A DNA stretch of 64,000 nt. Origin: Proteromonas lacertae (lineage: Eukaryota). The notes below the pieces were generated by a model. It made no database searches, was not told the origin of the DNA, and saw nothing but the letters and a program-made list of their open reading frames with translations. The stretch is from NCBI GenBank assembly GCA_002245135.1, contig NGBS01001161.1:248001-312000 (forward strand), in the 5' to 3' direction. The translations under genes and the position numbers were made by a program. This document shows, piece after piece, positions 9,718-49,228 of this stretch (position 1 is its first letter; each line of letters starts with the position of its first letter).

Positions 9718-10973
9718 ATGAACAAATTCATTTCTTCTTCGAACTTCTTAAGATACAAGGCTTTATACGAGTCAAAACGATTTGCTTCAAATAGTTTGAC
9801 TTATAAATTGCCAAAATATGATTTACATAGTATAATTGCGTAATACTTATCTAAAATCTTTACCTAGAGATTGAATCTCCTCCAAATACAATTGAAATCA
9901 ACAAAGAAGAGTGTTTAGATATGATAAAAAAGATGTACACAATAAGAAGAATGGAAATGACATGTGATTCAGAATACAAGCAGAAACACATACGTGGTTA
10001 TTGTCATTTATATGATGGCCAAGTATAACTAATAATTAATGAATTATTGAATTAATAGGAAGCTGTAGCTATAGGAATCGAAAAAACTTTACCTTCTCCA
10101 AATGATCTTATGACAAGTTATCGATGTCATGCACAACAATATTTAAGAAGTGGTGCAAATCAAGAAGCAATTGTATCTGTACTAGGAGAACTGTTAGGAA
10201 GATCATGTGGTTTCTGTAAAGGATTTGGTGGTTCTATGCACTTAGTTAACAAAGAAAAACACTTTTGGGGAGGTATTGGAATTGTTGGTTCACAAGTACC
10301 AATTGGAGCAGGATTAGCTTTAGCTAATAAATACTTAGAAAATGGTAATGTAGCTATTACTCTGTGTGGAGATGGTGCTTCTAATCAAGGCCAAGTGTAT
10401 GAAACTATGAATTTGGCTAACTTATATAAACTGCCTTTAATTATTGGGATTGAAAATAACCAATTTTCTATGGGTAGTTCTATTCATTATACTAGCAGCA
10501 ATAATAAATATTATACGATTGGAAACTATATTCCTGGTATTAAAGTTGATGGTATGAATGTATTTCATGTTATTAATGCTGTAAAATATGCTAAAGAATA
10601 TGCTCTTAAAAATGGTCCTATTATATTGGAAGTATAAATTCATACACTTTTAATTCTATAGTTTAATACTTACAGATATCATGGCCATTCTATGAGTGAT
10701 CCTGGCACTACATACAGATCTAAAGCAGAAATACAACATGTAAGAAAGACCAACGATTGTATCAATAACTTGAAACAAATAATGATTGATAATAAACTAG
10801 CAACAGAGAATGAGATACTAGAAATAGAAAATAGAGCAAAGAATGATGTTCAAAATGCTTTAAAAGAAGTGCTAAACAGTAAACCACCTGATGATTCATA
10901 TTATAAGAAGTTTATATACTCTGATTGCGATACCAATAACATTAAAACTTGTTCAATTAGAGATATTGATTAA
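9718..10973 (+). CDS. PDHA1: Pyruvate dehydrogenase E1 alpha subunit, mitochondrial-type
   Basis: GYCHLYDGQEA, YRCH, KGFGGSMH, GDGASNQGQ, ENNQFSMG, YRYHGHSMSDPG; presequence-like N-terminus. Confidence 0.95.
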
Positions 10974-11169: not shown

Positions 11170-13896
11170 ATGTATTTAGTTACTGCTAAAGTTATTTGCA
11201 TGCTATTTGTTATGGTAAACATAATCCCTGTAACTAGCTCTTCTAATATTACTAATACACAATATCTTGATTGGGTATATTTAAATGAATGTATATACTA
11301 TTTTATAATAACTCAATAGCCTATAAGGATAAAATCTATATAAAACAGTATAATGGTCAAAGCAGAATGTTTGCATTAGTAGATATTGACGAAAATTCTG
11401 AGATATTTTTTATTCCCAGAAATAGATTAATGTATAATATGATACTGATAATATTATAATAGATCAAGAGAATCAGTGTTAGAATCATATCCAAGCAATA
11501 TTTCAAGTGAGATTGATGCTATTGATTCAGATTATTACATTCTTGCTATGTATTTGATGAGTGAATATGCTAAAGGCAATGAGAGCAGTTGGTATCCATA
11601 CATAAAAGTCTTGCCAAAGAGAATGTTCAATTCATTATATTTCAATGACAATAATCTAAATGAGCTTCAAAATAATGATTTAAAAAAGAAAATTCTAAAA
11701 CATATTAAAGAAACTAGAAAAATATACAATGAATTTTATAATAATGGAACAATCAAATATTTCTTCTCTCAATCTTTAGATAAATATTATAAGTATTCTA
11801 CTTACAGTATTTTTAGATGGTCATTATCTATTGTGTATTCTTACGGCATATTGATAGATGGAAGTCAATATTTTATTCCAACAATGGAACAGTTACAGCC
11901 AGTTAATTTTTATTCATTCAATGAATATGACAACAACAAAAACTATCATGTATTAGATAATGAAGGATTTCATCTATATTCAAATAAGAAGGTATTTAAA
12001 AATGAAATAATTGAAGAGCCAATTATAAATACTCCTAATTCTATGTATTTAGAATATTTAGGAGGATTAATATTTCCCAATCCATCAGATTGTATTGATT
12101 TTACTCTTCCTGCTCCAAGAATAAGTATGATATTATATTATAATCTATAACTAGAAAATCAATACAAAATATTGCATAATCTTGGTTATGAAATGCCATT
12201 TCATGTGTGTTTATCAATGAACATGTTGTTATCAAAGAAGGTATTGATGTATATATATGCTTTGTTCATGTCAAGTGATTGGGCATTAAAGTGTTTAAAT
12301 AATAATATAGTAGTTAGAGGGTTAATCAATCCACCGCAATTGGATTATTGTTTTTGGTCAGAAGATTCTCAGATTGATAGAATACAAGCAAATATACAAT
12401 TGAATTATTTACTTACTAAGTATAAAGAAAAATATTCCACATCATTAGAAGATGATTTGAATTTATACAAAAGAATATATGGAAGAATTGATAATATTGA
12501 TGATATTGAGATTAATTACTCCAATAGATCTAATACTCAAGACATTATAATGCAGAATATATTACTATATAGAATAAATCAGAAATTGATAATTACTAGC
12601 ATGATATCTACGACATTACCACAAAATACATATCACAATACCTCTTTATTCATAACTTATTATTATGATAAAGTAAAATTGACAATGTTCAATGAGTGGT
12701 TTTATAACCAAAATATCTCTTCAAACTCAAAAAATATGATTCAAAGTGACTTATTTCCAAATTATAGATATGGATTAAGAAGCAAAAGGAAGATAAGAAA
12801 GAATGAAATATTCTTGTCTATGTCTGATGATATTTTGTTAAATAGAAAATCTGTTCATAGTAATATAACGATATTATTTCCATTATTAAAGAATGAAATA
12901 GGTTACGATGATGAGTATATGAATATTATATTATTGTTTTTGTATGAAAAGCATTTAGGAGAAAATTCATTTTGGTATCCATACATGTCAATGTTACCTA
13001 AGCTAACTGAATTGAATTATCCTATTCTTTATAATGATAAATATTTAGTTGAACTATATGGATCTGATTTACAAGAATATATAACATTATATCAGCTTGA
13101 TCTTAAACAGAAATACGAAAAATATAAAAGAATTTTATCAAATTACATTGACATATATCCAGTTGAAATATTGGATGATTTTAATTCATTTGTATGGTGT
13201 AATGCATTAGTTAATTCAAGGAGTATATATTTGAACAATATATATAATTTCATTCCAATGTATGATTTAATTAATTGGAGTGATAAAAGAAATAGAGAAA
13301 ATGAAAATTTGAACAATATATTATGGAATGAAGAAATACATTTTATGCAGTTCTTTTTTAATGGTGAAGTTGTAAATAATCAATTACTAATGTTTGATAA
13401 TCAACCAAATTACATTCACTTTGTATATCATGGATTTATCTCCGAAATACCTATAGAAGAAGATTGTGTATATGTTTCATTAAGATTAAATCAATATGAT
13501 AAGGATTATATTGTGAAAATAAAACAATTGAAAAACTATAACATATATAACACTCATTTTCAATTTTGTTTGAATAGTGATACTATACAATCTAATAATT
13601 TTAGATTGATATATTCTATTCTAAACATGATAGATTTAAATGATGATGAAAAATATCTAAAATCAATATACAGATATATTGGTGATAAAATAAATACATA
13701 CACAACATCTATTGAAAGTGATGAAATGCTTTTAAAGTATATATAAATATAAAATGTCTGTTTACTCTTTATATATAGATCAATAAGTGATGAGAATATG
13801 AAAATTATAATCAAATATAGAATAATTGAGAAGAAAATTCTATCTGAAATGTATTATTTCTTGTTCAGAAGTGATGCATCTAATAATTTAAACTGA
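11170..13896 (+). CDS. Signal-peptide protein with two tandem SET (Rubisco LSMT/SETD3-like) domains
   Basis: Hydrophobic N-terminus. Twice SxWYPYxxxLP, FxW, and SxExD...YRIxxKxI LSMT substrate-binding-type tails. Confidence 0.75.
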
Positions 13897-19387: not shown

Positions 19388-20800
19388 TTAAGCAAACAAT
19401 GTTTTTGCTTGATTTTCAATATCAATGTATAATTCATGAACATTTTGCATCCACATACTAATTCCTGTCGCTAATGATTTAATTTCATCTAAATTCAACA
19501 CTTTGGGTTTTAAATTGGTAATATTGATAGTCTGATTAACTTCATCAATTTCACCAGTGATTAATCCATCACTCATTGCTCTCATTACAATGTATTCAAC
19601 TTGATCTAATGGCATTTTAGTAGCTACACACACTTCTTCGAATGTAATTATTCTATTCTTTGATGGTTTATTAAACACTAACTGTAATAAAGCCATAATT
19701 ACTGCTTTTTGCTTAATAACATCTAATTTATTACACAATGCAGGTTGTTTTTGTATTTCAGTCATATGATTACCAATTAAAGTGTTGAAGTGATCAATAT
19801 TCCCTTCGTTGATGACCTTTATTAAATCATATAACCATCCATATTGAGTATTGATTAAATACTGAAATACAGGTGTTTGAAGTATTTCACCGTAATTATA
19901 AATATCTTTGCCAATTAAAGAAGCAATACTTATATTCATAGATATATTTATTCTATCTTCTGGAGGTATATCATCTACTGGAGTATAAGATATATAGGAT
20001 AGCGTATGAGAGAAATATAACTCTGGTGGTCCAATTGCTAAATAATATTGACTACATACACCTATTTCAATATATATTTAATGTATAAATACGATGATAG
20101 CATGAATATATATAAGGCTCACTACAAGACACCCGATTAAAGTAATCACTACATTTATCTAAGTATTCTTTAGCTTTAATTTGATCATTAAGCAACATGT
20201 ATAATGAACATATTTCTGATAATACGACTATGTAATATTCATACCCAATTCTTCTGATTTTTTGCTCAGACTCTTTGTATAATCTTACTTCCTCTGGTTC
20301 TTTATATTCTTCATCTTCTTCATTCTTTTTGTCTTGTTCTTCAGTCCATCCGTTTGGTTTTTCTACATTTCCTCCCACAATTCTATGAAGAAAGTTAATA
20401 GCAGCATAAATATCTATATATTACTCCTAAAATCAATATTTCATACTTTCAGGTGACTTTTCAGCTTCGTAGTATTGTTTTGAGATAATAACTAAAATTC
20501 TGGTGAAAGCGAGAGTATTTAATTGATCTTGAAAAAAATTAATAAAATTTTCATAGAGCTATGATCGATAAAAACAACTAAATAATACACGAACTAAATT
20601 ATCACCTTTAGAGTTCTTTGGATTGCTTAGAAAATTCATCAATTCAATAGTTAATTCATGCCATAATCTATGAACACTCAAATGCATTTAGAATACCTTC
20701 TGTCGTATAAATCAAAGAATGAAGCATAGGTTTGTGCATTTTCACCATCATTTGCAGCAGCGGCTTTAAGAAAGTCTTGAATTCTTTGCCTTAATGACAT
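19388..20800 (-). CDS. PSMD13: 26S proteasome lid subunit Rpn9
   Basis: LWHELT, IYNYGEILQTP, PCI domain VEYIVMRAMSDGLITGEIDEV. Confidence 0.92.
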
Positions 20801-21141: not shown

Positions 21142-24100
21142 ATGGTTTTTAAGATTATATTTATATTGTTATCAATATATTTTGATGTTGTAGCAGCTGA
21201 TACAGAGTCATTAGTTATTGGATATTTGCATCGAGGACCTACAGATACTTTCTATAAAGAATTTTTTGAGAAACTAATAGAAGATAATAAAAACGATATA
21301 TCTCCCAGCACTATTACTTATAAAGAGTTTCCTGTGGCTAATGATTTAAGTGATTTAGATGCAAAGCTCCAAGAAATAAAAGAAACCGAAAACCTATTAC
21401 ATGTATTTACTGATGATACAATATATGGCAAAACTGATGAATTGAGTAATTACCCATGTTATTTTTGGATGGCATATCCACTTGCTCAGGAGAAATGTTC
21501 CAAGAATGTAATATATTACAGTTCATTTGTTCCTATGATGATTTCATGTATTTATATTATATTTATAATATAATAGTTGGTCAAGCATTTGTAAAAAGAT
21601 TCCAAGATCCTAGAATCAATGTATATATCGTTGAAGATGATAAGAATAATGTTAAGAACAATAATGTATATGATATGATGAGTGGTAATATCAGACATTA
21701 TGGATTTAACTCTGTATTTGATATTTTACCTGAGAATTTTGATGCAAATATAACATCAATCTTATCAAAGAATGAAAAATCAATATTCTTGTGGGTAAAT
21801 AGAAATAAAGATAAAATAAAGAAGTTTTATGGTGATGCTAGTTTTGATTCAACTAAACATATTGTATATTCATTCATTCACTTTGAAATTAAATCAATAA
21901 CATCTCCTGGAATAAATACATTAAAAAATCTAAAAGAATCAACTCAAATGTTTACTGTTTATATCAGGAATGCTACAATGTTTGAAGCTAACATTACAGC
22001 ATTAGATTCAACAAGACAGTTTACATATACAGATATTATGTTTTACAATATGTTTAAACTTTTATTAAAAGGTTTTAAAGGTCATGACAATTTTGCTCCA
22101 CTTGCATTAAGTTATGAAATATACTATAAACATTATTATGATTTAGAATCAGGTGCTGTTTATCCATTACCTCATAATTTCATATCAACTTCATATTATC
22201 ATGTATCATTTAAAGATAAAGGTGATAATGATAATGATGATTTAGATGTAATACATGAATATTTACCAAATGTTTATTTTGACCCAAAAGAACAAATGGG
22301 TAATGTTCCTTTACAGCATTGTAGTTGGCAAGCAAATCCGTTTACTGGTAACGTCAGCATTAGTCCTGTTGTTGTTTTGTTCTTAAATCCAAATAGTGGT
22401 GAGGCAAGTCGTAACAGTGTATTGTCTATACTTTATTTATTATATTGTTAATAGCAATCATTAAGTGATTTAGAGACAGCAGTTGTTGATCATATTAATA
22501 GACAAGGAGGAGTACTTGGCACTTATATTCGTGGGTATGTTATTAATACAAATATACCTTGGGAAGTTTTGAAGATAAAAGTATAAATAGTTTATATTTT
22601 TTAAATAATTATAGCTAATTGGATTTTATAATAGATATAAAGTTCCAATAATGTTTCAATCGTCAGTAGGAGAAACAGCATCTAAGATACATGACTGTAT
22701 GAATAATAATTCTATTATTTCATTATAGTATCAATTGAGCTAAAATGGGAAAATATTTTTTTATATTTGAACAATATACCTCGTGCTCAGTGTAATAATT
22801 ATGGAACATTCTATATTGGAATGTCTGCTTCAGTTGTATCGAAAGCATTAGTTAGTCATTATTTAGAGGAAAATATTAATTCAGTTTTTATAGTTGGAAC
22901 TACAGAAGAGTATCATTTATTAATTGTATTTATATCATTGTTTAGATTTTCAGTAGCTTTATTAGATCTATTAAAAATAAGATTGACAGAATATGAAATA
23001 TTTATCGAATCACAAGCAATAATGGCTGCTACTGATCTGGATAATGGTATTGTAATAGCTAAAGCAATCAAGAAGTCTTATCCAGATGGTGGTTATGTTA
23101 TTAATGCTGCATCAAGTTCATATAATCAATATTTATTTGAAGCATTGAATATTGAAGGTGTAAATGAGACAAATGGTTATTACATTTATAATGTATTTTT
23201 ATCTGAACAAGATGTTACTTATTTTAGTAATTCAAATGTATAATGATGTAGTTATTAATATTAAATAGTTGACTGGATTTTATTCTCTTGGATATTATTT
23301 TGATTCAGAAAAAATACCATCAATGGAAGCAATAAAGAGTAGTTTATATGATAAAGACTATAGATTAACATCAGATTTAGTTATTGCAAGAAATGCAATT
23401 GAAATGGTAAAACAGATAATTGTTAATTCTGGAATATATAATAAAGCAACACTTCAACAGTATATATATTTTATTAATCTTATCATATTCTGTTTATAGA
23501 TTTATGTTTTCTCAAACAATAACCGATCCAAGTATTTACAGCATTGAATTTTCTGGTTTTGCCAGAATGAAAATAAAAATATATAAAGTGAATTATTTAA
23601 ATGAATTTGAAGATGTTTATACACCAAAGTTTACATTTTATTCAGATTATGCTTACCCATCAAGTTATGTTTGTTCTTGGAAAACTAGTATACAATTATA
23701 TTAATTTAATATTATTTATAGCTGAAAGTAATGGACTTAGTAAATATAATTTAATGGTTTTTGGTAGTATTTATGATAGAACAAATCCAGATCATATTCC
23801 ATACATAACACAATTAACTAATATTGTAGAAGCAGTTAATTCACTTGAAGTATGTCCTGATACAGTTTTCCATATTTATCAATTCAAACATTTAGATGAT
23901 GATCCATATAAGAACTATGAACTAAACATTTTTGAAATGGTTCATAATACTTATAATAATTCTGATCCAATCTTTCTTGGTATCTTTGGAGGATATGATG
24001 GAGAAGAAATTGAAAGAATTGAACCATTATTAAAGAAATTTAATTTGTTATTCTTTGATTTACATCCTCATTATGGTGAAACATGTAATTCTCAAGTTGT

Positions 24101-27100
24101 TCATGTTGGAGGTACTTTTAATCAGTTTGGAGAATCCCCTTTAGTATTTGCTCTTCAAGATACAGAATTAGTTGCTATTTTTACTGATAATTTAGAAAAT
24201 AACATACAAATATCAAATACAGCTGTGAATATGTTAAATCAGTTTACTACTACAGATTATTTTAATGAAACAATTTTAGATTCAACTAATTGTAGTATTT
24301 ACAATTCTGTTATTGATGAATTTGATGGGAAAACTGCAAGTATATTTATATATATGAATCAAGAAAATGCAGAGAATATTATATTGAATTGTTATTCATA
24401 CAATCCCAATATTGATGTATATGTGTTTGACATATGGGATCAAACTGTTCATAAGAATCCAGACAAATGGAATGGAGTTTATATTATGTCTACTTATCTT
24501 ACATCACTTAATAATACAGAGAATCGACAATACTTTATATTATTATCGAGTAAGATAGGTAATCCGCATGATTTTATAACTCCATTTGTAGTAAATGTTT
24601 ATGATTCATTGTTGTTTTTTAGAAAAAGTGGAGATTTGGTAAGATCGCTAATTGAGAAAAACCAATACTTGAATATATTATATAATACAGAAATGTCATC
24701 AATTTATGGACCAACATCATTAGGTAATAACAATTATTTGGACAGACCGATATATATAACGCAGATTGTGAATTGTACAAACTGTGAATATGGTTTTTAT
24801 CATGATACTATTTATATTAGTTCAACATCACTCAAAGCAAAACCTTATGCAACATATGTATATATTTTTGTTATTTATATCTAAATATAGAATAATGATA
24901 ATAAATATTATGAATGTAATTTTGTTGATAAAAATGTCCAAGAGAAAAAAGATATAGACACTTTCAATACTGCATTTTTGATTGATAAAAATAGAAGATT
25001 AGAATCTTTTGGAATATATGGATTGTTACTAACTATGATTCAAGAAACTAATACTGATGGAGGAGTAAGAGGCAAACAGATTTCACTTATTGCTAAATCA
25101 TGTCCAGTTGCTGATGCTTCTGATTTATTTCTAAAACTTCAGTCAGAAAATGTAAGATATGTATTTAGTATTTGCTCTCAAGAATCATTTGAAATTATGA
25201 GAGAACCCATTAGTTTATTAGATATTATATTCTTTCAAGCTGGTAGAAATTATGGAAAGGAATGTGCATATAATGTTATAATGCTTGGCACAGCTGGTTA
25301 TCAAGAAATTACACCATCAATTGTGTATTTAATCAAGGAATATAGGATGATAAATGTTATTTTTATATTCAAAACTGATAAATATAGAGCTTCAAGAATA
25401 AGTCTCATTAAATCAATATCACCTCTTACTACATTTTCTAATCCAGTTTTTATTGAAATTTCACCTGACAATACAACCGATGAAAGAAATGATATTCTAA
25501 GAGATGCTGTTAATTCATTACAACAGTATCCAAATAAATGCTTAACTATTATGTTAGTAGATCAAGATGATTTAGAACAGTATTCTGAGTATTATTACAA
25601 ATTATTTGGAGGAAAACCAGAAACATTGAAAACTGCATTACAAACATTTCCCGTAGTAGTAATGACTGATTTAAGTGGTATTTTGAATAATCCACAATAT
25701 TTAGAAGGATATAGGATTATATCTTCATTTGCTGCTACTACTAAAACAGAGTTTATTGGTGATTTTATTGATACAGTTGGATCTCATGTAGATAAATTCA
25801 TTATTCCATACAGTATCGTTCAGGTGTACGATGCATTTATGTTATTGACTTATGCAATACAAAAAATAGAACAAACTACTGAAGACATTGAAAAGATTAT
25901 TGACCAAATAAAAGAATATGTGCTAACTGGTGTAACTGGATATTCATATATTGATGATAATAACCATCTACTACAGCAGATACTGTTTAGTACAATTAAA
26001 GATGGTATTGTTGATGATCCAATACAAATATCTGAAGTATATCCATCTCATCCTTTTTACACTGATTATGACTATGAAAGAGAGCTGAGATGTGTAGGAT
26101 CGAAAATTATTGAAATTCCTTCTATTGTAATTGCAGTGTTTGTGTCTATAACCGAAAGTGAGATTGAGAAAAACTTGCAAATGATAGAAGCAGCAATGAC
26201 ACAGTTTGAAACTACAAGTTTAGATTTATATGGATATAATCAAGTAATATTGTTGTGCGATATTAAAGGATATTTGGAAGTAATGGGAAATTACTGTTTT
26301 CAATTTGCAATGAAGAAGAATGCAGTTGCTATTGTAGGAACAACATCGTATTTATAGTATGTATTTATATATCGAATAGATCTGAGCAACTTGAATTCTT
26401 TGCACCTCTATGTGATGAATATGATATACTCTATTTTGTTCCTTTTTTAACAGAAGGTAAACAGTGTTATAAGAATACTATATTTTTAACTCCTCCAATA
26501 TCTGCATATGTATATTTATATGTAATTATTGTTATATAGAATACTCTCTTTTCTATAATAACTAAATCATTTGATATGGATACAGTAATGGTAGTGAGTA
26601 ATTCACAAAATACAAAAGAAATAGCAAAATATATAGAAGTTGAGTTAGCTTATCGTGGTTTAATTATTTTAAAAGTTTATACAATTCCATACATAAATGT
26701 AGATTTAGATCCAATAGCAGATACAATTAAGAATGATTTACCAAATGGAGGATTTGTCATTAATCTATTGGAAAATGGTCCTGCACTTGAGTTCATAAAA
26801 GTTATGTATAAAAAAAAACTTTATTACCCTGACTATAAGATAATGTCATTCTTTGTAGATATTGATTCGATAAGTAATGAAGAATATGGAGAAGTAATGG
26901 TGAATCAATATTTTTGGAATAGTTATAATCCATTTACAATTGAACCACTTTCATCTTATACATTATGGTATGAAAAAATATTTTCATTCAGAGACTACTA
27001 TTCATCAATGGCAACTGCATCTTATACTTCACTATCTATAATAGTATTAGGATTAGTTAATGTAGATGAAATTACGCCCGAAAATATAAGAGTTTTATTT

Positions 27101-30100
27101 CAAACACATTATATTACTTGTACATATGGACAAATTAATTTAGCAAATACAAATATATTTGATGTAAATATATATCTTTCGCAAGTTATTATGGCTGACG
27201 ATGGTAGTTATTCAGTTTCAAATGTGTATCAATCTATTCTATCAGGAGTTCCAGAGGCATTGCAATTCAATCCAAATTTTTATGAAACATGTAATTTTGA
27301 TGAAAGATATGGAGATATTGGAAGACAACAATATTACTATATTAAAATAGGAATTTTACTCTCAATGAGTGGTTATGATAGAATAAATGATGCTCCATTG
27401 TTGGAAGTTATACTAGGATATTTTAAGTATATCAATTCTTTAACAACAGTTCATGGTTATAAATTATTAACACTTTTAAAAGATTTGAAATCTGATGTAA
27501 ATAATGTACAAGATGCAATATATGATTTAATGGATAATTATGTGAATATTATAATCGGTTGTACAGATAGTGATTGTAAGGATAAAGTACTTGAAGAAAT
27601 ACACTATGATGCAACTATAATGTTCTTTTATATTGGTAATTCTAATGGAGAAGAATGTTATACAAATGGTTATTTTACTGGTCATTTACCCAACCAATAT
27701 GTTACTCAGACGATTGAATATATTATAAAATCAGATTTACCTCAATCATTATTAATAGTTGGAACAGAAGGTTCATCTTTTTCTATGCAGCTTGCTGCAA
27801 CAGTAGAAAGTACAGCTGGTGCGTTATTATTTACATTGCCTGTAGAACTGTTAGAATCTGCATCTACGTATAATGCATTTTTGTACAATTTACCTTCTCT
27901 TTGTCCTGATGCAGGTTGTTGTATTATATTAACAAGTGATGTGAACGATGCAATCCAATTTATTAATGATTTTCATTCATCGGAGATGTCTTCCACTTTA
28001 TACCCAATTTTTACATTAACATTAAATTTGAATAATGAAAAATACTTTATAAATAATAATTTCAGAGATTTTTATATTCCAACAATCTATTCTAGTTTAG
28101 CAGAAGAATTTTATGATAATCGTAATGTGAAAAATAAGATTAAACACTATGTTGGATATGAACCAAATGATGCAATAATTCAAGCTTATTATGCTGCGGA
28201 TATATTGACTAATGGTTTTATAAATGCTCCAAGTTTAGCTCCCTATGTGTTTGACGAAGAAATTGTTGATTATCCATTACAAGGTCCATTAGGAAGTTAT
28301 TCTGTTCATAAGACTCATTATGTTGATCATCCTTATATATTAGTACATATCAACTCAAATGGTGAAGAAGAATTAGTTACTTATTTCCTTGAGACAATTG
28401 TACCACAACCTTGGAATTGGATGATAAATACAGAATTAGGTAAATCTTGTTCTTTTAGAAGAGGTTCGACTGCATTTATTACTACAGAGAAAGTCTCTAC
28501 ACTTACTTCATTTATTAATATGGCAGGAGAGGATGGTGAATTGAATAATGGTGTATCAGAAGCAATAAATGCAGTAATTGATAGTTATAATGCTGCAAAT
28601 GGAATAAATGGATATACTATTGTTCATTATTTAACTGCAGTTGAAAATGCAGAAACTGCAAAGAAGTATATAGGTGTAATAGAGAATAGTATTAACAATC
28701 ATGCTGATGATATAGTGCCAATGTCGCCATTAGTATTGATAAGTGTTGATGATGATAGTCGAGATGCAATTTATAGTAAAATATCAGAATTGAAAGGTTT
28801 ATTGGTTGATGTATCAATGTCAGTTCCAAATTATTGTGAAAAGAGTGTTGTATCTGCAAGTTTAACAATTGGTTACTATGATAGATTATTGGATATTATT
28901 ATTCATAGACATTATCCTGGTTTTGCAATTATCAGTGAATTAGATAATGTAGCTTCATCTTATGTAAAGAAATACTTAGAAAGAAAAGGTGGTAGTGTAT
29001 TGATGGTTTATTATGATGAAAATAACTTGAATGTAATTGTAATGTCATCTTTATTACATACATTAAAATCTCAATTCTCTGAAGGTTGTTTAATCTTTTT
29101 AGGTAAATCAAAATATCATTCTTTATTAAATGCAGGAATGATAAATACTGAATTATATGAACCAAAATACCATTTAATATCGTTTACAAGTGGTGGTGAA
29201 ATAGTAGATTCAATCGAGAATATATTACCATTTGAAGCAGCTGGTGCTTATTCTCAATCAATAAGTCGAAATGAAAATACTGAATTTCTAAACCGAATGA
29301 AAGCCTATTACACTGGTTCAACATTTTTGAGTGATAGAATAGCTAGAACTTACTCAGTATTAAGTCTATTGTTTGATTCAATGATAAAAGCAGGAACAGT
29401 AAGTGATTTTTCTTTGATAAGAGAAACAATGTATCATACCAGTTATTCTGCACCTGAAGGTGTATTGACATTATCTGAGAATAATTATCTAACTCGTGTG
29501 AATGACATTATCAACATATGATCCTTCAAGCAAAACATTTACTCTTGTTTATTCAACCGAAACAGCAGTTGAAGGTACAGCTTGGATAAGTGATGGTAAA
29601 GTAGAGATAAATTCATGTAATTTTGTAGATTTAAGTATAGGAAAAAAGAAAAAAGAGAAAACAATAAGTGTAGTAATTCCAGTTGCTTTAACAGGTGTTG
29701 ATCAAAAAGATGAATTAAAATTATTAGATTCAATATTACTAGCAATTGATGAAATAAATGAGAATGGTGGTATTTTAGATAATAAAGTAATAGCTGATAT
29801 AAGAGATACAAATTCTGATGAAGCAGAATTCCTTAGTATAGTTGAAACAGTGAAAGACACAGATTCGAAGTTAATAATTGGTGGAATAAAGAGTGAAGTA
29901 TATTCGAATGTTGGACCAAGAGTTGATAAAGTTTTATACATATTCCCTGGTTATAATCCAGGTGAAGTATGTTATGAAAATGCTATATCAGTTAATTTCA
30001 TGTTAAATCAACTAAGAAATCCATTACAGATTTATTTATACAAAGAAATGAAGACAATCTTTATAGTTTATGAATCAAATGAAATAAGTCAACAATGTCG

Positions 30101-33100
30101 ATTAATGGTAGGAAAACTAATAGGTGAATCTCATTTGACTAGTAATGGTCAGACATTATTAACAAATAGTAATATTCAAACATCAGTGATGTTAATGCAA
30201 AGTAAATTATTAGATGGTGGAACAATAGTAAATTGTCTATCTTCTTCAATAACAGTTGATCTTATGAAAGAAATGTGTAATCAGAATTTATATCCACCAA
30301 CTTATACAATAGTTAGTTTATTCTTCCAAAATCATTATTTAGATGATTTAGGTAATATAGATAGTAAATGTATAGCAAATCATTATGTAATTTCTTCCTT
30401 CTTTCCTTCTTTATCTGATGACTCTTTCATCAAAAATAACAATCTCATCCACTTCTTTGAATGGATTTGTGAATAGTTTAGGTCAAAGAATAGGTTGGAA
30501 TGAGAGAATAGAATCTTATATGGAAGCAGCCTATTCTTCAATGATATTATGGGCTGATGCAGTTCAGAAAGCCTATACATTTGATTCATCTTTAATAAGA
30601 TCTGTAATGTATGGTAGAAAATATAATTCTCCTTCTGACTTTTTGATAATATCGAATAATAATGTAGCAAGTCGAAGAATATATACAGCTTATATAACAG
30701 CGAATAAAGATTTGTATGTAGTTGAAGGTCCAGATGAAGCAATAACACCAAATGTGTATAGTGATATAAACGCAAATGGATTAGCTAATCATTATTGTGA
30801 TTGGTCTAGTGCAAATGGTGGGAAATCTTTTAAGAAATTGAGTAAGAATATTTTAATGGTTCATAATACTGATGCAACAGATCAATTAACTGATTTATAT
30901 AGATCATTAGCTGAGAAGGTGTATATTGATGCAATAAATCAAGATGGTGGAATATTAGGTTATAATCTAATAATCATTGATGCTTATTTAAGTGTAAATT
31001 CAGGTGAAATGAGAAGAAAAATAAAGAATATGATAATAGATAATGATGTAGTTGCTGTATTTGGATGTTCTTCAATATTTTGCATTGATGTAATGGAGTG
31101 AAGTAGCGAATGATTTAAAGATATTATTCTTTACAACTCAATCTGATGATGGTACAATATGTTCTCCATACACAATTCACACTGGTCCATCTATTGAGCA
31201 AATGATGTATCCTTTATCTACATTTATTCCTACCGTTCAAGCAAAAGCCATATTTGTGATTACTTATCCTCTGGATGCAATGATATACAACATAAATGAA
31301 TTATTGAGTGAAAAAATAGATCTTCCATTAGCTGGTGCATGCCTTTATAAAGAAGGAGAAACTGTATCTAGTAACATTTTCGATTCTTGTATGTCTGATT
31401 TGAAAAAAGCTTATACAAAGTATAATAGAGTATTAGTTTTTGCAATTGTCTATTCATATGAGTTATCAGCTTTTATTAGTGCATTAAAAAAGGATAACAT
31501 TTTAATGGAACATATCAAGATTGTGTTTTTTACATTTGAAAGTTTTTATTTCAATGATGATGATTTAGATTATATAGATGGAAATTTCATTATTACACCA
31601 AGTGGAGATGGAACTCAGAATACAGTAGCTTTATCATTCACAAGATTAATTCAATCCAATTTAGGATCTGATTTCCCAATAACAGCAACAATGACATATA
31701 TGTATTCTGCTCTACAATTATGGAAAGCAGGAATAGAAGTAGCAACAAAACAAGTGAATGGAGAATGGCCTGGAACAGAATATGTAAGATTAACAATGAT
31801 AGGTCAAAGAGCAAATACTCCAGGTGGAACAACAACAGTAAAATCATCAATGTATACAACACAATCATTCTATATAACCGAAATTGTCAGTAAAGAAGAA
31901 TCATTAATATATCCTGCAAAAGGAACTGTGATAGAGACAGATCCGTTATTAACATATAATGGAACGTGTGAATTTGGTATTTCAAGAAGATTGTTTTCAT
32001 ATAGCGAAGAAGAAAGAATAGCTGTATATGTAGTGGCAATCGCTATTGCAATATTTTGTGTATTTGTATGTTATTTCTTATGGAATTATCGTGAATTGAA
32101 GATAGTGAAATTTGCCTCTCCATTGTTTTTGTTTTATTTGTTAATTTCACTGTTCCTATTAGCTGTTGAAGGTACTGTATTTGTGTTTGAACCAACAAGT
32201 GATGGTTTAGTTTGTGCTTTTAGAGTTTGGGGTCTGGCATTAACAGTTGATTTGGTATTTAGTATTATTATAGCCAAAGCTTGGAGGATTCATAGATTAT
32301 TCAACAATAAAGAACTTAAGAAAGTATAATACACTATTACAATTGTTATTATTAAATAGATTAATATCTCGAATGGATCATTATTGAAAGTTATATTTGT
32401 AGTTTTAGGTGTGCAAGTGATATATCTTGGTATTTGGTGGTTAGTAGATAGATCAAAATACACAGAAACTTTTAGTCCATCTTATTCATCTTTCTTTGAA
32501 GATGTATATATTCCTGAATGTACAGAAAGTCAATACTTTATTTACATTCAAATTGCTGTTGTAGCAGTGATGTTTGTGTTTGGTATAAGATTAGCTTGGT
32601 CAGTAAGAAAAGCTTCAAAAGAGTTTAATGAATCAATCACCTTAGCTTCAACATTTTTGATTATGTGTATGAAATATATTATTCTAATTTTTATTTAATA
32701 GTGATTATTGGTGTTATTGATATACCATTGAACTTTATATTATCAGATAGTCCAAATGTATTAGTGTCATTAAGAGCATTTGGAGATGAATTAGGTGTAA
32801 TAATCATTTTATTAATACAATATTTCCCCAAAATCTATGCAGCTTATACAACATCATCTGCTATTGATACAATGACACTTGAATCAAGTAAAAGCACAAA
32901 TACCACAACTCAGTATAATTTTATCATATTATTAATAGGCAAACAAATAAATCGAATGGATCTATATCAGAATCAGTGAATGTTGCTCCAAATCAAGATT
33001 TATTAGTAAATAGAAGTGCTTCAAAGAGGATGAGTTTAGATCAAAGAGGCAGTCAAATATTTAGTGAAAAATTCAAGCAAAATCCTGATCATGATGATAT

Positions 33101-33176
33101 TATGAAAGTTGGTAAAGCTACATTAGCTGCAATATTGTTGTTATCTCGTGATTATGCTGAAATGAAAGAAGACTAG
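21142..33176 (+). CDS. Giant class C (GABA-B-like, 7tm_3) GPCR with nine tandem UrtA/AmiC-type periplasmic binding domains
   Basis: Signal peptide; nine repeats of about 380-400 aa (e.g. IDEINENGGIL, MEAAYSSMILWADAVQKA, APEGVLTL); 7TM with IVKFASPLF, AKAWRIHRLF, LAWSVRK..KEFNES, YFPK. Three apparent +1 frameshifts (about 29500, 30420-30470, 31095). Confidence 0.85.
21449..21664 (+). repeat. 216-bp segment identical to 63785-64000
   Basis: Base-by-base comparison; includes the first intron. Confidence 0.95.
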
Positions 33177-33345: not shown

Positions 33346-35972
33346 ATGGATGATGCTATAAAATCATTTGCTGAAATGCTTGATGTGGACTATAAAGTAG
33401 CCAAATACTTTTATGAGAAAGCAAATGGAGATCAAGAAATGGGTATATAAATCACTTTTACATTGTATAGCTGCTAATATGTTATTTGAAAAGTAAAACA
33501 CGTTAATATTATTCTATAATAGTGAAGGAAAGATACCTGAGGCTCAACCTTCTTCTCTTTTATTAAATCTAGGTAATCTTAATCCATGTGAGCATTGGAG
33601 CAGTTGTACAAAGTTACCTCAAAATACAGATAAAATATACAAGGAGGAATGCATGAAATGTTTTGATAATTGGGTATTTTAATTGTTTATCATTACTGAT
33701 AGGATATGAGCAATGGTAATAATGTTTGTTTACAATGTTTCTGGGGATTTTGTTCAGATCATTTACAGCATCATGTAGAAACTTCTAATCATTACATTAC
33801 AATGAATATAATGAGAATAGAAGATGTAGAACATAGAGAAAAAATAACAAAATTAGCAATTGGTGTAGAAGGAGGAGCTCAGCAGAAGAAATATAGATAT
33901 GAATACAATATAAAATGTCATAAATGTAATATAGAATTAGATAAATCAAATTTATTTGTTCAAAATATCAGTAAAATGATAATAGAATCTCAATCAGCAG
34001 AGGATAAAGAAGAATTGACGAAATGGGAAGCTGAGAAATTAAAAGCCATGTCCACACGTAGATAAATTTGCAGCAAGAAAATAATAAAGTACAAGATAAA
34101 AGTATATCTAAAATTTTAATTATAAATAGATACAGCACATTGTTCAAATTGTGAAATTAATGAAAATCTTTGGATGTGTCTTACCTGTGGTAGTCTAGGA
34201 TGCGGTAGAAAACAATGGGGTCCAACAGCTCCCCCCGGAAATAATCATGCAATTGAACATTATGAAAAAACTGGTCATCCAATAGTAGTGAAGATGGGAA
34301 CTATTACACCTGATGGTAAAGCAGATATTCATTGTTATGCATGTGATAATAACCCGCAATATAATTATGGAGATATAACAGATCCTAAATTATCCAATCA
34401 TCTTTCTCATTTAGGAATTGATATTAATATACAAGAAAAAACAGTGAAGAGTTTATCTGAAATGGATTTGGATATTAATAAATCATTTTTAAGCTTTGAT
34501 AGTATGAATAATAATAAAACAGCAGATGGTAAAGAATTAATTCCATATTATGGCAGTGGTTTTATTGGATTAATAAATTTAGGTAATTCTTGCTATATGA
34601 ACAGTGTTTTACAGTTTTTATTCACTTTACCAACTTTCAAAGAATATTATTTTGATTTATATAAGAATCATTTATTAACATGTTCAAATAATCCATTCAC
34701 TTGTTATTTATGTCAATTCTGTAAATTAGCAAATGGAATATATACTGATAAATATGCTAATTATATTAATAATGATGGACTAAGAGGAATTAGACCAAGA
34801 GCATTTAAAATGTATGTAGGTGGAAATCATGAAGAGTTTTCCACCAATCGTCAACAAGATGCTTTAGAATATTTGGACTATTTATTAACATTTATGAATA
34901 ATCATGATAATAAACCAAATATCAGTGATTATTTCAAATATGAAACTACTAGAAGATTAGAATGTAATAGTTGTCATGGTATAAGATATACCAGTAATAA
35001 TAATGAAGTATTATTGATTTCTATTCCATATGAACCAACTGATAGAGATAATGAATTGATAGGTAAAGATGTCAAAATAGCATTAGAAGAATGTATTAGA
35101 TATACATTTGAAGAGAATATTGTAGAATTAGATTGTCCAAAATGTCAAAAGAGTATATATATAATATTATGTAATGAATAGAAACATCATTTAAAACTTC
35201 AACTCATTTCAAAACATTTCCTAAAAGAATGGTAATTGCACTTAGAAGATTTGGTTTCTTTGGAGGTTCTTGGGTTCCTAAGAAGTTACAAGTAATAGTA
35301 GAACCACCAGATGAATTAGATTTATCATCTTATTATTTAAAACCATCAGAAATACATAATGAAAATGTATTACCTGAAATTAAAACAAATACTCCAATTA
35401 ATGAAGAATTATTAAATCAAATAATGGATTTTGGAATTGAAAGAAATGTAGCTATAAATGCTATTAAAATACTAAATGTAAGTGATGCTGAAGTGATAAT
35501 GAACTATATTTTTGAACATATGAATGAATTATCACAACCAACAACAACAGCCAATAATTCATCAACAAGTGAAGTTTCAATAGAATTAGTCAATACAGTA
35601 AGAGAGATTTGTCCAGGATTATCAGATGGTGTAATAAAGAAAGCATTAAAAGAATGTAATAATAATTGTGATGAAGCAATTGGCTGGATATATTCTCATC
35701 CAGAAGCTGAAGCTGAAGTATTTAAAGAAGAAAAAGAGAAAGAAAAAAGTAAGTCAATTCCAGTAAATGATAAGATAAAACCATTAGAAAAACCACCACA
35801 TTATACGTTAAGTAGTGTAATTGCTCATAGAGGTACTTCAGTGATGTGTGGACATTATGTTGATATGAATAGAATAGATGGAAAGTGGTATTTGTATAAT
35901 GATGATAATATAGTAATTCACCCTAGCCCACCATTAGGAGAAGGATATATCTATATTTACAGTGATGAATAA
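33346..35972 (+). CDS. USP5: Ubiquitin carboxyl-terminal hydrolase 5/13 (isopeptidase T/Ubp14) with an extra N-terminal UBA-like domain
   Basis: ZnF-UBP LWMCLTCGSLGCGR, Cys box GLINLGNSCYMNSVLQ, QQDA, two UBA inserts, His box HRGTSVMCGHY. Two +1 frameshifts near 34043 and 34065. Confidence 0.92.
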
Positions 35973-36704: not shown

Positions 36705-39700
36705 ATGAGTGATGATGAATGGAAAGAAGATGAAAAAGAAGAAGAATACGGCGACGTAGAAGAAACTAAATATGAAGATGAAGAAAATGAAGACAGTATA
36801 AATCATTTCTTATATTCTAGGCGAAGATGGTATTATATTCTATTATTATTGATGTAAAATAGAACCTCCTCCAATGACAATACTCAATGCTTTTGGTATT
36901 TTGTATTTTTTTAATGTTATAGCGAACGAGAGAAAAATTAGTGAAGAAAAAGATGACAATGGATTTATTATGACAAGAAATAAAAATAAACATACGAAAA
37001 AGAAGAAAATGAATGAAGAAATTCCAAAGACAGGAACAATATCAAGAGCAGAACGATTTAATTACAGTATATTGATAATTGTTTATATTTATCTTAAAAT
37101 AGAACCAAAAGATGAGAAGAAACCCAAGTATAAAAACTGTATTTGAGTGTTATTACTATTGTTCTTTTTAGATTTGGAAGAATTAAAGTCAACTACAAAA
37201 AAATCAACAACAAAAAAGAGTAAAAACGCTTTTGGTTCAACAGATCTTTCAAATAGTATGTTTATGGACAATTTTCACAAAGATGATGATATAAGTGTAG
37301 TAGATGAAGATGAGTTAGATAAAATTACACAAAAAATAAAACAAAAAGAATCATCATTATTAGATGAAAATATATCACTATTCAATGAAGAAGAAAAAGA
37401 AAATGATACTGAAAATGAAGAAAAGAAAGAGGAAGAGGAAGAGGTAGAAAATAACAGTATTGCAAATCCTCGGTTTAATCCATTTAAACTATTTATTACA
37501 CTTCAAAATATTGTTGATATTCCTTCTAATTTAGGAAGTATATTTTATATTATTATTATTATATTTAGTAAAATCTATTTATTTATCATTTCAATTAAGT
37601 TGTGGTAATCCATCAGACTTTGAAAAGAGTAATACTATAAGAATATATAATAATAATGGAAAATGGGAAGAAAATACTGTAATAGAATTGAAATGTCTTA
37701 GACCATTAGAAGGATTAATGTTGAAAGTTTTAGTATTATATTTATTTATTTACTTAATGTTATTATATCTATAGTTATATAATGCAGAAACAAATCATAA
37801 CTTTGCATATATCAATTTTCCTTTAAATCAACAAATTCCAAATCCTATAGAATTTACATTTTATCGAGATATTTATTCAACAATACCAAAACTATCATGG
37901 GAGATAGAAACTGATGAAAATAAGGATGAAGTAAAAAATGAAGTTGCAGATGATATAGAAAAGAAAAATATTCCTCAATTAACATTCGAATCAATTGATG
38001 AAAAGAGTGATACATTATCTTCATATATAATGTCTTACAAATATAATTTATATGATGAAGATATATTGAAAAGTAGATTTAATTTAAAAGTACATTATGA
38101 GGAAGGAACAGGAAGTTTTTATTTTTTATTTTATTCATTGTCACTTGGTTGTGATGTAGGGAAAAAAGTAACTCAAGAAGATTTAATAATAGAGTTTCAA
38201 CTTGGTGTATGTTATTAATATATTATTTATATATTTTGTATTTAGTTATCTTTATTAAATGATTTTAATGATATTTATGAACAAAAAATGAGAAACTATT
38301 TACTAGCTGATGCTGATATTGATGAAAAAACAACAGTAATATGGATATTAAGAAGATTATTAATAATAATTGATGATAAAAAATGTTATTTAACTCATGA
38401 AACTAAAAAATTATTAAATAATAATGAAAATGAAAATCCATATTATATTCAACCTGATCCTATAGAAGAAACTAAAAATCGACTTGATTTCCTTCGTAAA
38501 GAATTTGAATTCAATAATAATGTCAAGGAAAAGATATATATTGTTGATAATGTGTTGAAAGATGTTGCTCAATCTAAAATACCAGCTGTAACATTTGATA
38601 TGGATTCATTAGAAAAAGCAGCAAAGTTAAGTGGATCTTGTATAATATATTATTATTATTAAAAAATAGTATGTAGGCCAAGAAAAGAAATAGAACCTTC
38701 ATTGCAATATAAATTTGATTTAAAAATTGACAAAGAAAAAGCTGCTAGAATACAGAAGAAAGCGAGAGAAATAGTGAATAAAGCGAGGAAAGATATTGAA
38801 ATGGATGAAATAGAATATCAATTAAGAGTTAAAAGAGAAATGCAAGAAGAAATGAGATTATTGAATGTATATATATATATATATTAAAATCAATAGTTGG
38901 TTGAAAAACATAGAATTGATGATATAAAAAGGAGAGAAGAAAGAGAAATACAAAAACTGCAGAAAGATGCTGAGAATTATGCAAAATATATGAAAACACA
39001 AAGAAGAGTATTAATTCTATTAATATAAAATAGATACAAAGAGAACAATATCATAGTATGATTAGAGATACGAGATTAACTACATTTGGTATTGGAAATA
39101 TAAAAGGATCTTACTTTGGACCAGCTCCAATAATTAAAGACACAAAAATAAAACCAAGTGAAACTGTAAATGATGAATATTATTATGATGAAAATGGAAG
39201 AAAACATAAACGAGATGAAAAAATGACCGTTACATTAAGAAATAATAAATTGCTAGAATCACCATTTACATCAGCAGATGAAAAGAGAGGAAGATTGGTA
39301 GAAAAACAGTTATTTAATACAATTCAAAATATGGGAAATGATTATAATTATTGTGATATTTATTCACCATTTTCACCTTATAAAGATAAAGATAGTGGTG
39401 ATATATCCTATTCTGAGTTTAGATTAGGTTTAGAATCATTATCTATTCATTTAGAAGATTGGCAATTAGATGCAATAAGTGATTTCTATGATAAACATGG
39501 AACAGGTAAAGTGAATTTAGATAAATTCTATTATTCGTATTTCACTAGAAAACAGAGTAAACAGTGGGAAAACATGAGATCGAATATTGGAAAAATATTT
39601 AACAAGGATCAGTTGATAAAAAAGAATGATTTAAGGAATAAATTAAGACTAAATAATATTCATCAGCCTAATTATGAGTTTAACCAATTAATGTCTATTC

Positions 39701-39927
39701 TAGACCATGGAAAAGAAGGATTGATTAAAGTTAATGATTTTATTAAGTTTTTAGATATAAATCCAAATTTAATTGATTATGAAACAAAAGATGATACAAT
39801 TAAGTTGGATTACTCTTATCGTTCAACCAGATTAATAGAAAATGATGGAGTATATGAAGAAACAAAGAAAGAGCTTGAAAGACTGAAACAGAAACAAAAG
39901 GAATTAGAAGATTTATATGATTTTTAA
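36705..39927 (+). CDS. Acidic/coiled-coil protein with possible C2-like region and C-terminal EF-hands
   Basis: DKDSGDISYSEF, DKHGTGKVNLDKF, DHGKEGLIKVNDF; many micro-introns. Could be more than one gene. Confidence 0.55.
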
Positions 39928-41749: not shown

Positions 41750-44700
41750 TTAGAAAGACATAGATGTGCCTACATGACTCTCATCATCAGACTCTTTATA
41801 CTCATCATCACTAATTGCATTGTATTCAAACTTTATATTCTCCAATACTTTCTTATAATACTCAGCAAACAATTTAGAATAGCTTGGTGGAAGTAGTTCA
41901 ACACATTGTTGGAACAATGAATCTGCATGAGGTGTTTTCAGCTGTAAAGCAACACATAATGTCCTTTCTGCAATAATCTTAGCGGCAGTAGGAGATCTAG
42001 CAACATCAAATAACACAGGGAACGACAACTTTGTAATATGGAATACCTTCATCTTTTGGTGTTATTTTGTATAATCTTTTAATAGTCTTTAATACATTCA
42101 CTACTGTGATATTATCTTTTCTTGACTTTCAATTCTTCTTCCATATTTGGTAACAATTCCCAAATAAAACCAATCCAAGTTGGATCTCGTTCTTCTTGGT
42201 GTTTGATTGCAGTAACTAAACAATAAATACTTTCAGAAACATATTGTTTAATTGAAGTATTTTCATTTTGTAAAGTATTTTTAACAAATGGTATAATTGA
42301 TGATATATACGTTAGTGCTACTAATTGTGAATGATGTGCTATGGATTTAATAGTCATACATCTAAAATATTACATTAAAACATATATATATATATATATA
42401 TATACCTTCCCAATAATGTATTATCATTGCTATTATTAGTTGAACATAGATAATTAATTGTCGATTGTTGAACTTCTGGTTTGCATATACTAATAGCAAT
42501 ACCAATAATTGAACTTGATAATCTTTTAACTCCTTCATTATTGTCTGATAAATTGTCTTTTATTGTTGTAATCAATTCTTCAGCTACAGGAGTTGAGATT
42601 GTTGATTTTGCAGATAATAATGTGATTCTTATACCACGATATAATGCTTCTTTAATCTATTCATTATATAATATATAATATATAATATATACACTAACAT
42701 CTTTTGCTGTTTTTAAGTGAGTATTTAAATCTTTAATTAAACTTTCATTTCTACTAGATATCTTTGTTAAATTCTTTAATGTAGTTAAACCATGTTGTCT
42801 AACAGATCCATGTTCATTCTCTAATGCTTTAATAAGAACTGTATGTAATTGAGGAATGAATAACTTAAACACAGTTTCATCACCTTTATCTAATAACTTT
42901 GATATATCATCAATTAATTCACATTTCAATGTATGTTTAAATCGATCATTTAAACCTCTTATTAATGTGCCAATTATCTTTCTACAGAGATCTTGATTAA
43001 TGTTATTCTTTGTACTTAACGTTAAAATATCACCTAAACATCCAGCTGCTTCTGATCTGATTTCTTCTGAAGTTGATTTTAATCCATGTTGTAAGAAATT
43101 CCAGAATGGATTTGTTTTGAAACTCATTGTAAATGCTGGAATTGTGATTGAATCAGCTGTTAAATTCCTATTAATATTTATTTATAATTCATATATAATT
43201 ATACTTTTGTCTGATTCTTCTACCAACTAAAACAATATCTTGTCTTATAACTGATACATATTTTGACATTTCTATTTCTGTAATTGATTTGACCAAACTG
43301 TCCATTGCATCCCAAGCAGCTCTAATGATTTCTTCTTTTGGATCGTTAAATGCTTCAATTATACCTTTACTAAATATGGCAATCTATTCATTATTATTAT
43401 TATTATTATTATATACATTATCATGGAAATCTATCTTTGTATGTTTGAAATATTCAGATAATATTTTCATAGCGGTTAATCTCCATCCCCAATTATCTTT
43501 AGTAGTAAACTGTATAATCTCTGGAATAGTGACATGTAAACCATTTGATTTAACACTCACTAATACAGTCAATATACAATTTTCTAAAGCTTCTGTTAAT
43601 TCAGGATCAGACTATTAATATCATATATATATATATATATATAATGTAATTATACACAATCTGTTGGTTCTATATCCATTGGACAACCTCTTAATGCAGT
43701 GAAGAAATCAGTAAATATTTTACAAGTTGAAAAATGCAATACTGTTCCACAAACATCCACTATTTCACCTAAAGCTACAACATTCGCCTTTTTCAATGGT
43801 TTAGATAATAATTCATCTAAAATAATTTCAAATGCATTCAATTGTCTTGATAAAATACCTTTTAAACAATTAGTACCTCTTCTAACTAGTTTTTCATCAT
43901 TACTATTAATTTGTTCGATTGTTTTGGGTAATAACATCTTCAAACAATCATTTCCTACTGCATTGTATAATTGACTATATGCTATTGATGCTACTGATCT
44001 AACATCATAATCATCATCACCTAAGGCACTTTCTAATGGTTTGATTAAGTTACTTAAATATTCTTTCAATTGTCTCTTTGGACATGCTTTTATAATTTCA
44101 CTTAATCCCATACATATGCCAGTTTTCTTTCTGCTTTCTTGATCTTCTGTTAGTTCATCTTCTAATAATGGAATAATTGTCTGTAATACTGAATCTCCTA
44201 ATTTGGAGACTACATCTCCTAGACATTTACCTGCTACCACTTGTAATTCTCCTTCTATTAAGAATTGGTCGTTTAATAGTTGCAATAATGTTGGTAATAT
44301 TGATTTTAAGGTTGCTGGTGTGTTGTAGACTATAGATTTCCATATTTGTAAAGACTTTTGTTTTACGACTGTATTAATATCTGAGCGTATCATATATAAG
44401 CAAGATAAGACAAGATTGTATTGCTTTTCACCAAGGGTTGATTCTATTAGATTTATTTATAATTCATTGTTATACTCAATTGTTTACATGTATTAGCATT
44501 AACAACATATTCCTCTTCATCATCTTCATCATCACTATTTTCACTGATTGACTTATTTCCACTTAATTTTGATCTAATTCATAAAATATTAAAAGAATAT
44601 ATTAAATATATACAATAATTGACCTAATAATTGTACAGCACTTTGTCTATACCTCCAATTTTCAGATAATATGTTTGATAAGATAGGACTTAATAAAAGC

Positions 44701-49194: not shown

Positions 49195-49228
<34 letters not shown>

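Follow-up and report, generated by a model that had tools for sequence, protein, structure and literature searches.

A textbook class C G-protein-coupled receptor (GPCR) has one Venus flytrap domain per subunit, which closes on one ligand. In the GABA-B receptor this is a single ANF-type flytrap of the type I fold, set on a seven-transmembrane (7TM) domain by a short stalk and without a nine-cysteine domain. Outside animals, fusions of binding-protein domains to the 7tm_3 domain have been described, and in the accessible parts of these reports the longest ectodomains reach about 1,600-1,670 residues (PMC3251606, PMC3971589, PMC5168858, PMC12716839). We have analysed 64,000 nucleotides of the Proteromonas lacertae genome (assembly GCA_002245135.1, contig NGBS01001161.1, positions 248,001 to 312,000, forward strand), referred to here as the window and numbered from its first letter. 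A single gene at 21142-33176 on the forward strand is predicted to encode a class C GPCR whose ectodomain consists of nine tandem units with the fold of UrtA, the binding protein of the bacterial UrtABCDE ATP-binding cassette importer. Whereas the gut-fungal fusions, as far as their published descriptions extend (PMC5168858 and others), carry type II domains, this receptor carries about 3,480 residues of type I units; a Peripla_BP plus 7tm_3 architecture also appears in a supplementary listing (PMC3971589). In an open-access library, searched mostly at the level of titles and the openings of abstracts, we found no report of tandem UrtA units or of a nine-unit receptor, subscription papers lying outside the search. 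Our best explanation, to which we give slightly less than an even chance, is that the protein is a surface chemosensor for small solutes other than urea, which would use nine UrtA-fold flytraps and G-protein signalling, and that three breaks in its reading frame are likely assembly errors.

The gene, called by two dynamic-programming models, one of them an ab initio coding model, runs from an ATG at 21142 to a stop ending at 33176. Its 15 predicted exons encode 3,855 residues, with an X at each of the three frame breaks and zero nonsense codons, and the predicted product starts with a hydrophobic leader and continues through nine UrtA-fold units before reaching a GABA-B-like 7tm_3 domain. A first-pass annotation, made from the letters alone, had proposed one giant gene of about 3,900 residues with nine repeats; the single-gene call agrees with it, and the nine units map within about 45 nucleotides of its coordinates. 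Its signal peptide corresponds to hydrophobic residues 1-19 (21142-21201), a likely signal peptide as judged from hydropathy alone.

The nine units were checked against a profile for which 39 relatives supplied 149 units, no window sequence included. In the model this profile detects nine units that do not overlap, and no more, each scoring 39-290 bits when excised singly, and it reached at most 7.7 bits on 459 shuffled or reversed control sequences. Unit 1 (21202-22346, 39 bits) is the most diverged, and is followed by unit 2 (22347-23732, 138 bits), unit 3 (23733-24941, 131 bits), unit 4 (24942-26117, 131 bits), unit 5 (26118-27316, 169 bits), unit 6 (27317-28474, 225 bits), unit 7 (28475-29642, 177 bits), unit 8 (29643-30822, 290 bits) and the membrane-adjacent unit 9 (30823-31993, 182 bits). 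The units are 372-393 residues long, each has a cysteine motif at its end, and adjoining units are joined by short linkers with no internal leader or intergenic gap; they resemble one another at only about 20%, so self-comparison is weak. In a Pfam scan of 11 exon pieces, PF13433 or PF13458 scored above its cut-off for the pieces covering units 3-9, and units 1-2 had no match.

Structure was predicted for the 986-residue exon at 26543-29500, which spans 2.6 units, from a 30-row in-register alignment (predicted local distance difference test, pLDDT, 82.6; predicted template modelling score, pTM, 0.79), single-sequence folding having given a pLDDT of only 33. When this model was searched with Foldseek, the top four rows were cyanobacterial UrtA-urea complexes, followed by Caldicellulosiruptor UrtA and then AmiC. 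A second aligner superimposed unit 6 on UrtA (8hic) with a Z score of 43.9 and a root-mean-square deviation of 2.7 over 381 residues, including the C-terminal tail. The cysteine pair shared with UrtA, which probably forms a disulfide, is kept (its two members in 124 and 125) among 131 near-complete units of AT-rich relatives. All nine units thus have a type I binding-protein fold with a UrtA tail by profile, and unit 6, the sole unit compared whole, has it by structure as well. The AmiC/UrtA-type repeats of the first-pass annotation can therefore be narrowed to UrtA specifically, with its two-cysteine tail. Of the checks it had proposed, the Pfam search succeeded for units 3-9 (PF13433 or PF13458) and the 7TM domain (7tm_3) and left units 1-2 unmatched, and structure prediction returned the UrtA fold for unit 6, the unit that it covered whole. 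AmiC (1pea, 1qnl), a bacterial amide sensor, shares the fold (Z 39-40) and a sensing role, but it is cytoplasmic, has a single domain, scores below UrtA and lacks a match to the cysteine tail. UrtA itself (8hic, 7s6e, 7s6f) shares the fold including that tail. The window units differ from it in having only 17-18% identity, in the loss of the urea residues, and in forming a ninefold repeat attached to a eukaryotic 7TM receptor, with no UrtBCDE permease genes nearby; the neighbours scanned are eukaryotic housekeeping genes.

Beyond unit 9 lie a short stalk and the 7TM domain (31994-32830), then a cytoplasmic tail of about 103 residues, 25 of them serine or threonine, and the stop (32831-33176). 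The 7tm_3 profile scores 68.8 and 51.3 bits on two exons (Pfam cut-off 33.5), and there are seven hydrophobic peaks, with cysteines in transmembrane helix 3 (TM3) and extracellular loop 2 (ECL2). A TM3 lysine, a TM6 glutamate and the TM3-ECL2 cysteine pair are retained, and presumably have the functional roles they play in other class C receptors. Among solved structures the best matches are GABA-B2 chains (E 7e-7). With 7tm_3 above its cut-off, seven helices and a flytrap ectodomain behind a likely leader, the predicted protein has the architecture of a class C GPCR; a C-terminal class C, GABA-B-like 7TM domain, as in the first-pass annotation, is borne out, and all eight sequence motifs that it quoted are present in the model. 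NCD3G gave no match, only about 18 residues separate the last unit's cysteine from TM1, and the absence of the nine-cysteine domain sets the receptor apart from the mGluR/CaSR/T1R subgroup. It resembles the GABA-B receptor in joining a type I flytrap to the 7TM domain by a short stalk without that domain, and differs in having nine UrtA-type units in place of one ANF-type flytrap.

The open frame is interrupted at three places, each with one base too many: near 29501 (29495-29515) in unit 7, near 30425 (30415-30432) in unit 8 and near 31093 (31088-31102) in unit 9. Profile reading and the coding model locate the first two; the third comes from profile reading, the coding model having disguised it as an intron. 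One X at each place restores full-length position-specific profile matches (234 versus 200, 323 versus 197 and 276 versus 66 bits). Introns were considered instead and rejected: atypical introns at breaks 2 and 3 score lower (298 versus 323 and 252 versus 276 bits) and have an AT fraction of 0.67-0.71, against 0.86-1.0 in the accepted introns, and at break 1 the shortest candidate, of 70 nucleotides, is coding-like. The interruptions could in principle separate several genes, encoding tandem secreted binding proteins and a small receptor, and we regard this as extremely improbable: the breaks fall inside units and not between them, adjoining units are separated by short linkers alone, neither a leader nor an intergenic gap occurs internally, and all three places are crossed in one frame by 29 of the 37 relatives with an alignment. 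Because so many relatives read through, we take the architecture to be real; the first-pass annotation did not mention the three breaks and needs correction on this point.

If the breaks are real, the gene would be a recently dead receptor, or its product would stop near 29520, after about seven units, as a soluble chain lacking the membrane domain. Large receptor families often lose members, and the breaks are enriched here: this gene has 3 in 11.6 kb, and the other predicted coding DNA, 39.8 kb in all, has 0-2; p is 0.011 if the background count is 0 and 0.079 if it is 2, with an odd break in a USP5-like gene included, and the coding model can hide a break as an intron. We nevertheless consider this reading quite unlikely, as each of the three breaks adds a single base, all of them occur at short base runs inside a 1.6-kb stretch, no nonsense codon is found in 3,855 codons, and the guanine-plus-cytosine (GC) content by codon position past the breaks equals that before them and that of housekeeping genes (0.12-0.18 at third positions). 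The neighbouring USP5-like gene, moreover, has one similar break. Their shared direction, their clustering, the lack of nonsense codons and the normal codon-position GC lead us to think that the three breaks are probably assembly errors, the remaining alternative being a recently broken copy. We note that the break in the USP5-like gene (33346-35972), at 34040-34090, is either an atypical 32-nucleotide intron or two extra bases. Other frame changes in the USP5 and GCN1 genes, considered as sequencing errors, proved to be ordinary introns, except for that one (34058-34089).

The receptor is not unique. A HMMER scan of 1.84 billion representatives gave 238 matches, of which 150 were listed. From these, 38 long or multi-unit proteins were picked by eye, which together with P0001 make up the 39 relatives; they have 2-9 units each. 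PF13433 and 7tm_3 occur in one open frame in 18 of the 38 proteins scanned, 17 of them above the 7tm_3 cut-off. P0002, a Logan record of 3,745 residues without AT bias, starts inside a unit and continues unbroken through at least nine units and a whole 7TM domain, and in P0006 a leader precedes nine units, of which the ninth is cut short. The architecture search suggested by the first-pass annotation as a test of novelty thus revealed a UrtA-plus-7tm_3 family in several eukaryote groups, with nine units in P0002 and P0006 also. Capsaspora CAOG_05347 has three PF13433 units and 7tm_3, and the chytrid proteins HDU96_010091 (Phlyctochytrium) and HDU67_007338 (Dinochytrium) have two and 7tm_3. Architecture places these in the same family, as does the tree for those units that are intact, but they have only 2-3 units, and their annotation goes no further than 'hypothetical' or an automatic profile name. 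Many AT-rich relatives share the places at which they start or stop, which likely reflects introns read unspliced. Word-indexed homologue searches recovered at most 1 relative, two metagenome DNA scans contained no locus of the receptor, and atlas searches returned generic binding-protein clusters and single-flytrap diatom class C clusters of 800-900 residues.

Several proteins found alongside these have other arrangements. P0217 (from the dinoflagellate Yihiella), P0216, P0209 and P0063 have a two-unit UrtA ectodomain, with the outer pocket whole and the inner one lost, and one membrane helix without a 7TM domain; in P0217 and P0216 a glutaminase domain lies at the other end of the fusion, making a candidate urea-gated receptor enzyme. 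P0032 and P0033 are fragments in which intact UrtA units stand in tandem; these units group with receptor-fused ones, so that the fragments are likely further members. P0035, P0036, P0037, P0040, P0041 and P0056, of 1,450-1,600 residues, carry one UrtA-type domain at either end with a membrane helix in the middle, and group with bacterial rows.

Window units 2, 5, 6, 7, 8 and 9 cluster with the same position in relatives in a 67-row tree (Shimodaira-Hasegawa-like approximate likelihood ratio test 91-99, long branches flagged), in which units 3 and 4 group weakly by position and the placement of unit 1 is undecided; a fuller fast tree also places units by position. In proteins without a 7TM domain the unit labels were assumed from the cut end, and seven fragments with shifted labels were left out of conservation counts. 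Because units group by position, we consider the nine-unit array, as far as sequences can tell, to be old and maintained among the AT-rich relatives. The units of P0002 group together, and their composition differs from that of the AT-rich array. Intact receptor-fused units form one group (91/87 in 37 rows, a set without AT-rich units, Capsaspora, most bacterial rows or three of the P0002 units) and sit among two-cysteine UrtAs, cyanobacterial ones nearest, in an unrooted 134-row quick tree.

Might the receptor sense urea? According to the part of the UrtA study available to us, urea binding is crippled by the loss of residues among a set of five, W120, S122, Q144, Y190 and N246 (PMC10392092). 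All 10 bacterial controls and five of the nine P0002 units have the complete set, and each of the nine window units has only 0-1 of the five. The 131 AT-rich units are similarly depleted, 84 having none of the urea residues, 39 one, six two and two three. The best sequence and structure matches are UrtA-urea complexes and relatives keep the pocket, as a urea sensor inherited from UrtA would predict; that urea is still sensed is nonetheless very improbable, given these losses, the absence of any AT-rich unit with more than three of the residues, and a best score with the UrtA profile TIGR03407 of 62.6 bits on an exon piece, below the curated cut-off of 492.75. We would exclude urea as a ligand of the window's protein with fair confidence, which leaves pockets that appear to be either diversified or dead. 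Because the window units have lost the urea-binding residues, UrtA ancestry does not give the ligand. Urea sensing is predicted for those non-AT-rich relatives that keep the pocket, and among them P0002 is the strongest candidate for a multivalent urea receptor. The membrane-adjacent last unit has 0-1 of the five residues in each of the eight non-AT-rich members for which it was scored (P0002, P0064, P0063, P0218, P0219, P0217, P0216 and P0209).

These observations suggest how such a receptor might have arisen and might work. A two-cysteine UrtA would have been fused once to a GABA-B-like 7TM domain in an early eukaryote, giving a urea-sensing receptor with at least two units. The membrane-adjacent unit would have given up ligand binding to serve as a coupling element, a role we propose because the pocket is absent from it in every member examined. 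In the AT-rich lineage the array may have been fixed early and the gene family expanded, with pockets remodelled so that units or paralogues bind different ligands. Held by the conserved, probable disulfide and connected through linkers of about 10-15 residues, the units could pass closure of an outer domain down a semi-rigid chain, probably in a dimer like those of other class C receptors; the outer units would bind solutes, the ligand-free inner unit would couple to the 7TM domain, and a G protein would carry the signal. At about 6-7 nm per unit the extended chain would measure about 50-60 nm. It is reasonable to infer that several gut metabolites may be sensed in this way.

The enrichment of breaks is not the only point that weighs against a solute sensor of this kind. 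Pocket positions were mapped through alignments at about 20% identity; among the AT-rich relatives, conservation in the pocket columns of units 6-9 (0.12-0.16) falls short of the average for the unit (0.21-0.24), and no alternative conserved pocket emerged in these units; nor did we find a precedent for outer units reaching a 7TM domain. In a rival reading, the units of the same single protein bind no small ligand and make up a structural stalk or an adhesion rod, which would sense mechanical load, or contact with mucus, bacteria or other cells, for the 7TM domain to report. This reading would fit the faster divergence of those pocket columns. It would also fit the conserved cysteines gained in the pocket loop at positions 4, 6 and 9, the conservation of unit order without that of the pockets, and the pTM of 0.79 across 2.6 units, which suggests fixed packing. 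Fast-changing pockets are also shown by a diversifying family of chemoreceptors, however; unit 5, the position with the best-conserved pocket among relatives, has pocket columns at 0.31 against a unit average of 0.21 (unit 4 is slightly above its average) and keeps a partial pocket motif across 18 sequences, and non-AT-rich members keep whole urea pockets in their outer units. We therefore hold the stalk to be unlikely, if still a serious contender, and prefer the solute chemosensor.

A broader account, which we put forward as possible but doubtful, is that these proteins constitute an undescribed, eukaryote-wide class C family derived from a captured bacterial urea-binding protein. In fungi and the relatives of animals its members would be urea sensors of 2-3 units; its other form would be a giant chain of nine units, with a single 7TM domain receiving input from several flytraps and so summing or comparing ligands. 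Gut flagellates would have re-tuned the chain into a large multi-input repertoire. The fusion type is already known, and the interest lies in the conserved nine-unit chain, a sign of an unstudied family that includes candidate urea receptors. Such a chain raises the questions of how outer domains reach the 7TM domain and whether one receptor integrates several inputs. The candidate urea-sensing GPCRs (P0002, P0064, P0219 and the chytrid P0218) could be useful as biosensor parts. Table S5 of one survey, the part of it we draw on, lists 116 class C receptors, 182 type I binding-protein domains and 7 G-alpha proteins for Proteromonas, and 0 class C receptors and 0 G-alpha proteins for eight Blastocystis genomes (PMC12129017). 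The receptor described here fits a lineage with a repertoire of this kind and may help to explain how gut flagellates perceive their surroundings; Blastocystis seems to have lost this system. Judged from its content, the window would suit a Proteromonas-like lineage, Blastocystis being discounted for its lack of both protein classes. The accessible text of PMC5608401 contained no mention of GPCRs.

The window has a GC content of 26.7% (27.0% for Proteromonas) and is eukaryotic, with GT-AG introns of about 25-45 nucleotides. The 14 predicted introns of the receptor gene are 26-40 nucleotides long with an AT fraction of 0.86-1.0. Intron 1 (21548-21576, 29 nucleotides) precedes seven introns in unit 2 (22419-22454, 22581-22614, 22697-22728, 22910-22945, 23238-23268, 23460-23499 and 23688-23721), intron 9 (24858-24890, 33 nucleotides), introns 10 and 11 (26348-26379 and 26510-26539), and introns 12-14 in the 7TM domain and tail (32324-32359, 32667-32701 and 32913-32938). 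That at 22910-22945, in frame, without a stop and accepted on composition, is the least certain of the 14. Unit 2 thus holds seven of the 11 predicted ectodomain introns, and units 4 and 6-9 hold none.

Head to head with the receptor gene and 341 nucleotides away lies a gene for a PSMD13-like proteasome lid subunit (19388-20800, reverse strand), with which it may share a promoter. Elsewhere in the window are genes for a GCN1-like HEAT protein (42112-50031) and an AAA-bromodomain protein (54648-58737), both on the reverse strand, and for pyruvate dehydrogenase E1 alpha (9718-10973) and an acetyl-CoA hydrolase/transferase (61803-63415), both on the forward strand. Two further predicted forward-strand genes, at 11170-13896 (about 860 codons) and 36705-39927 (about 950 codons), have no Pfam match or a weak EF-hand only. 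A gene with several He_PIG putative Ig repeats (2975-7242, reverse strand) likely encodes a surface adhesin; an InterPro entry given in PMC3129679 presumably corresponds to He_PIG. Short introns, a putative-Ig protein, pyruvate dehydrogenase E1 and an acetyl-CoA transferase together suit an anaerobic gut stramenopile, as far as the accessible part of that source describes one (PMC3129679).

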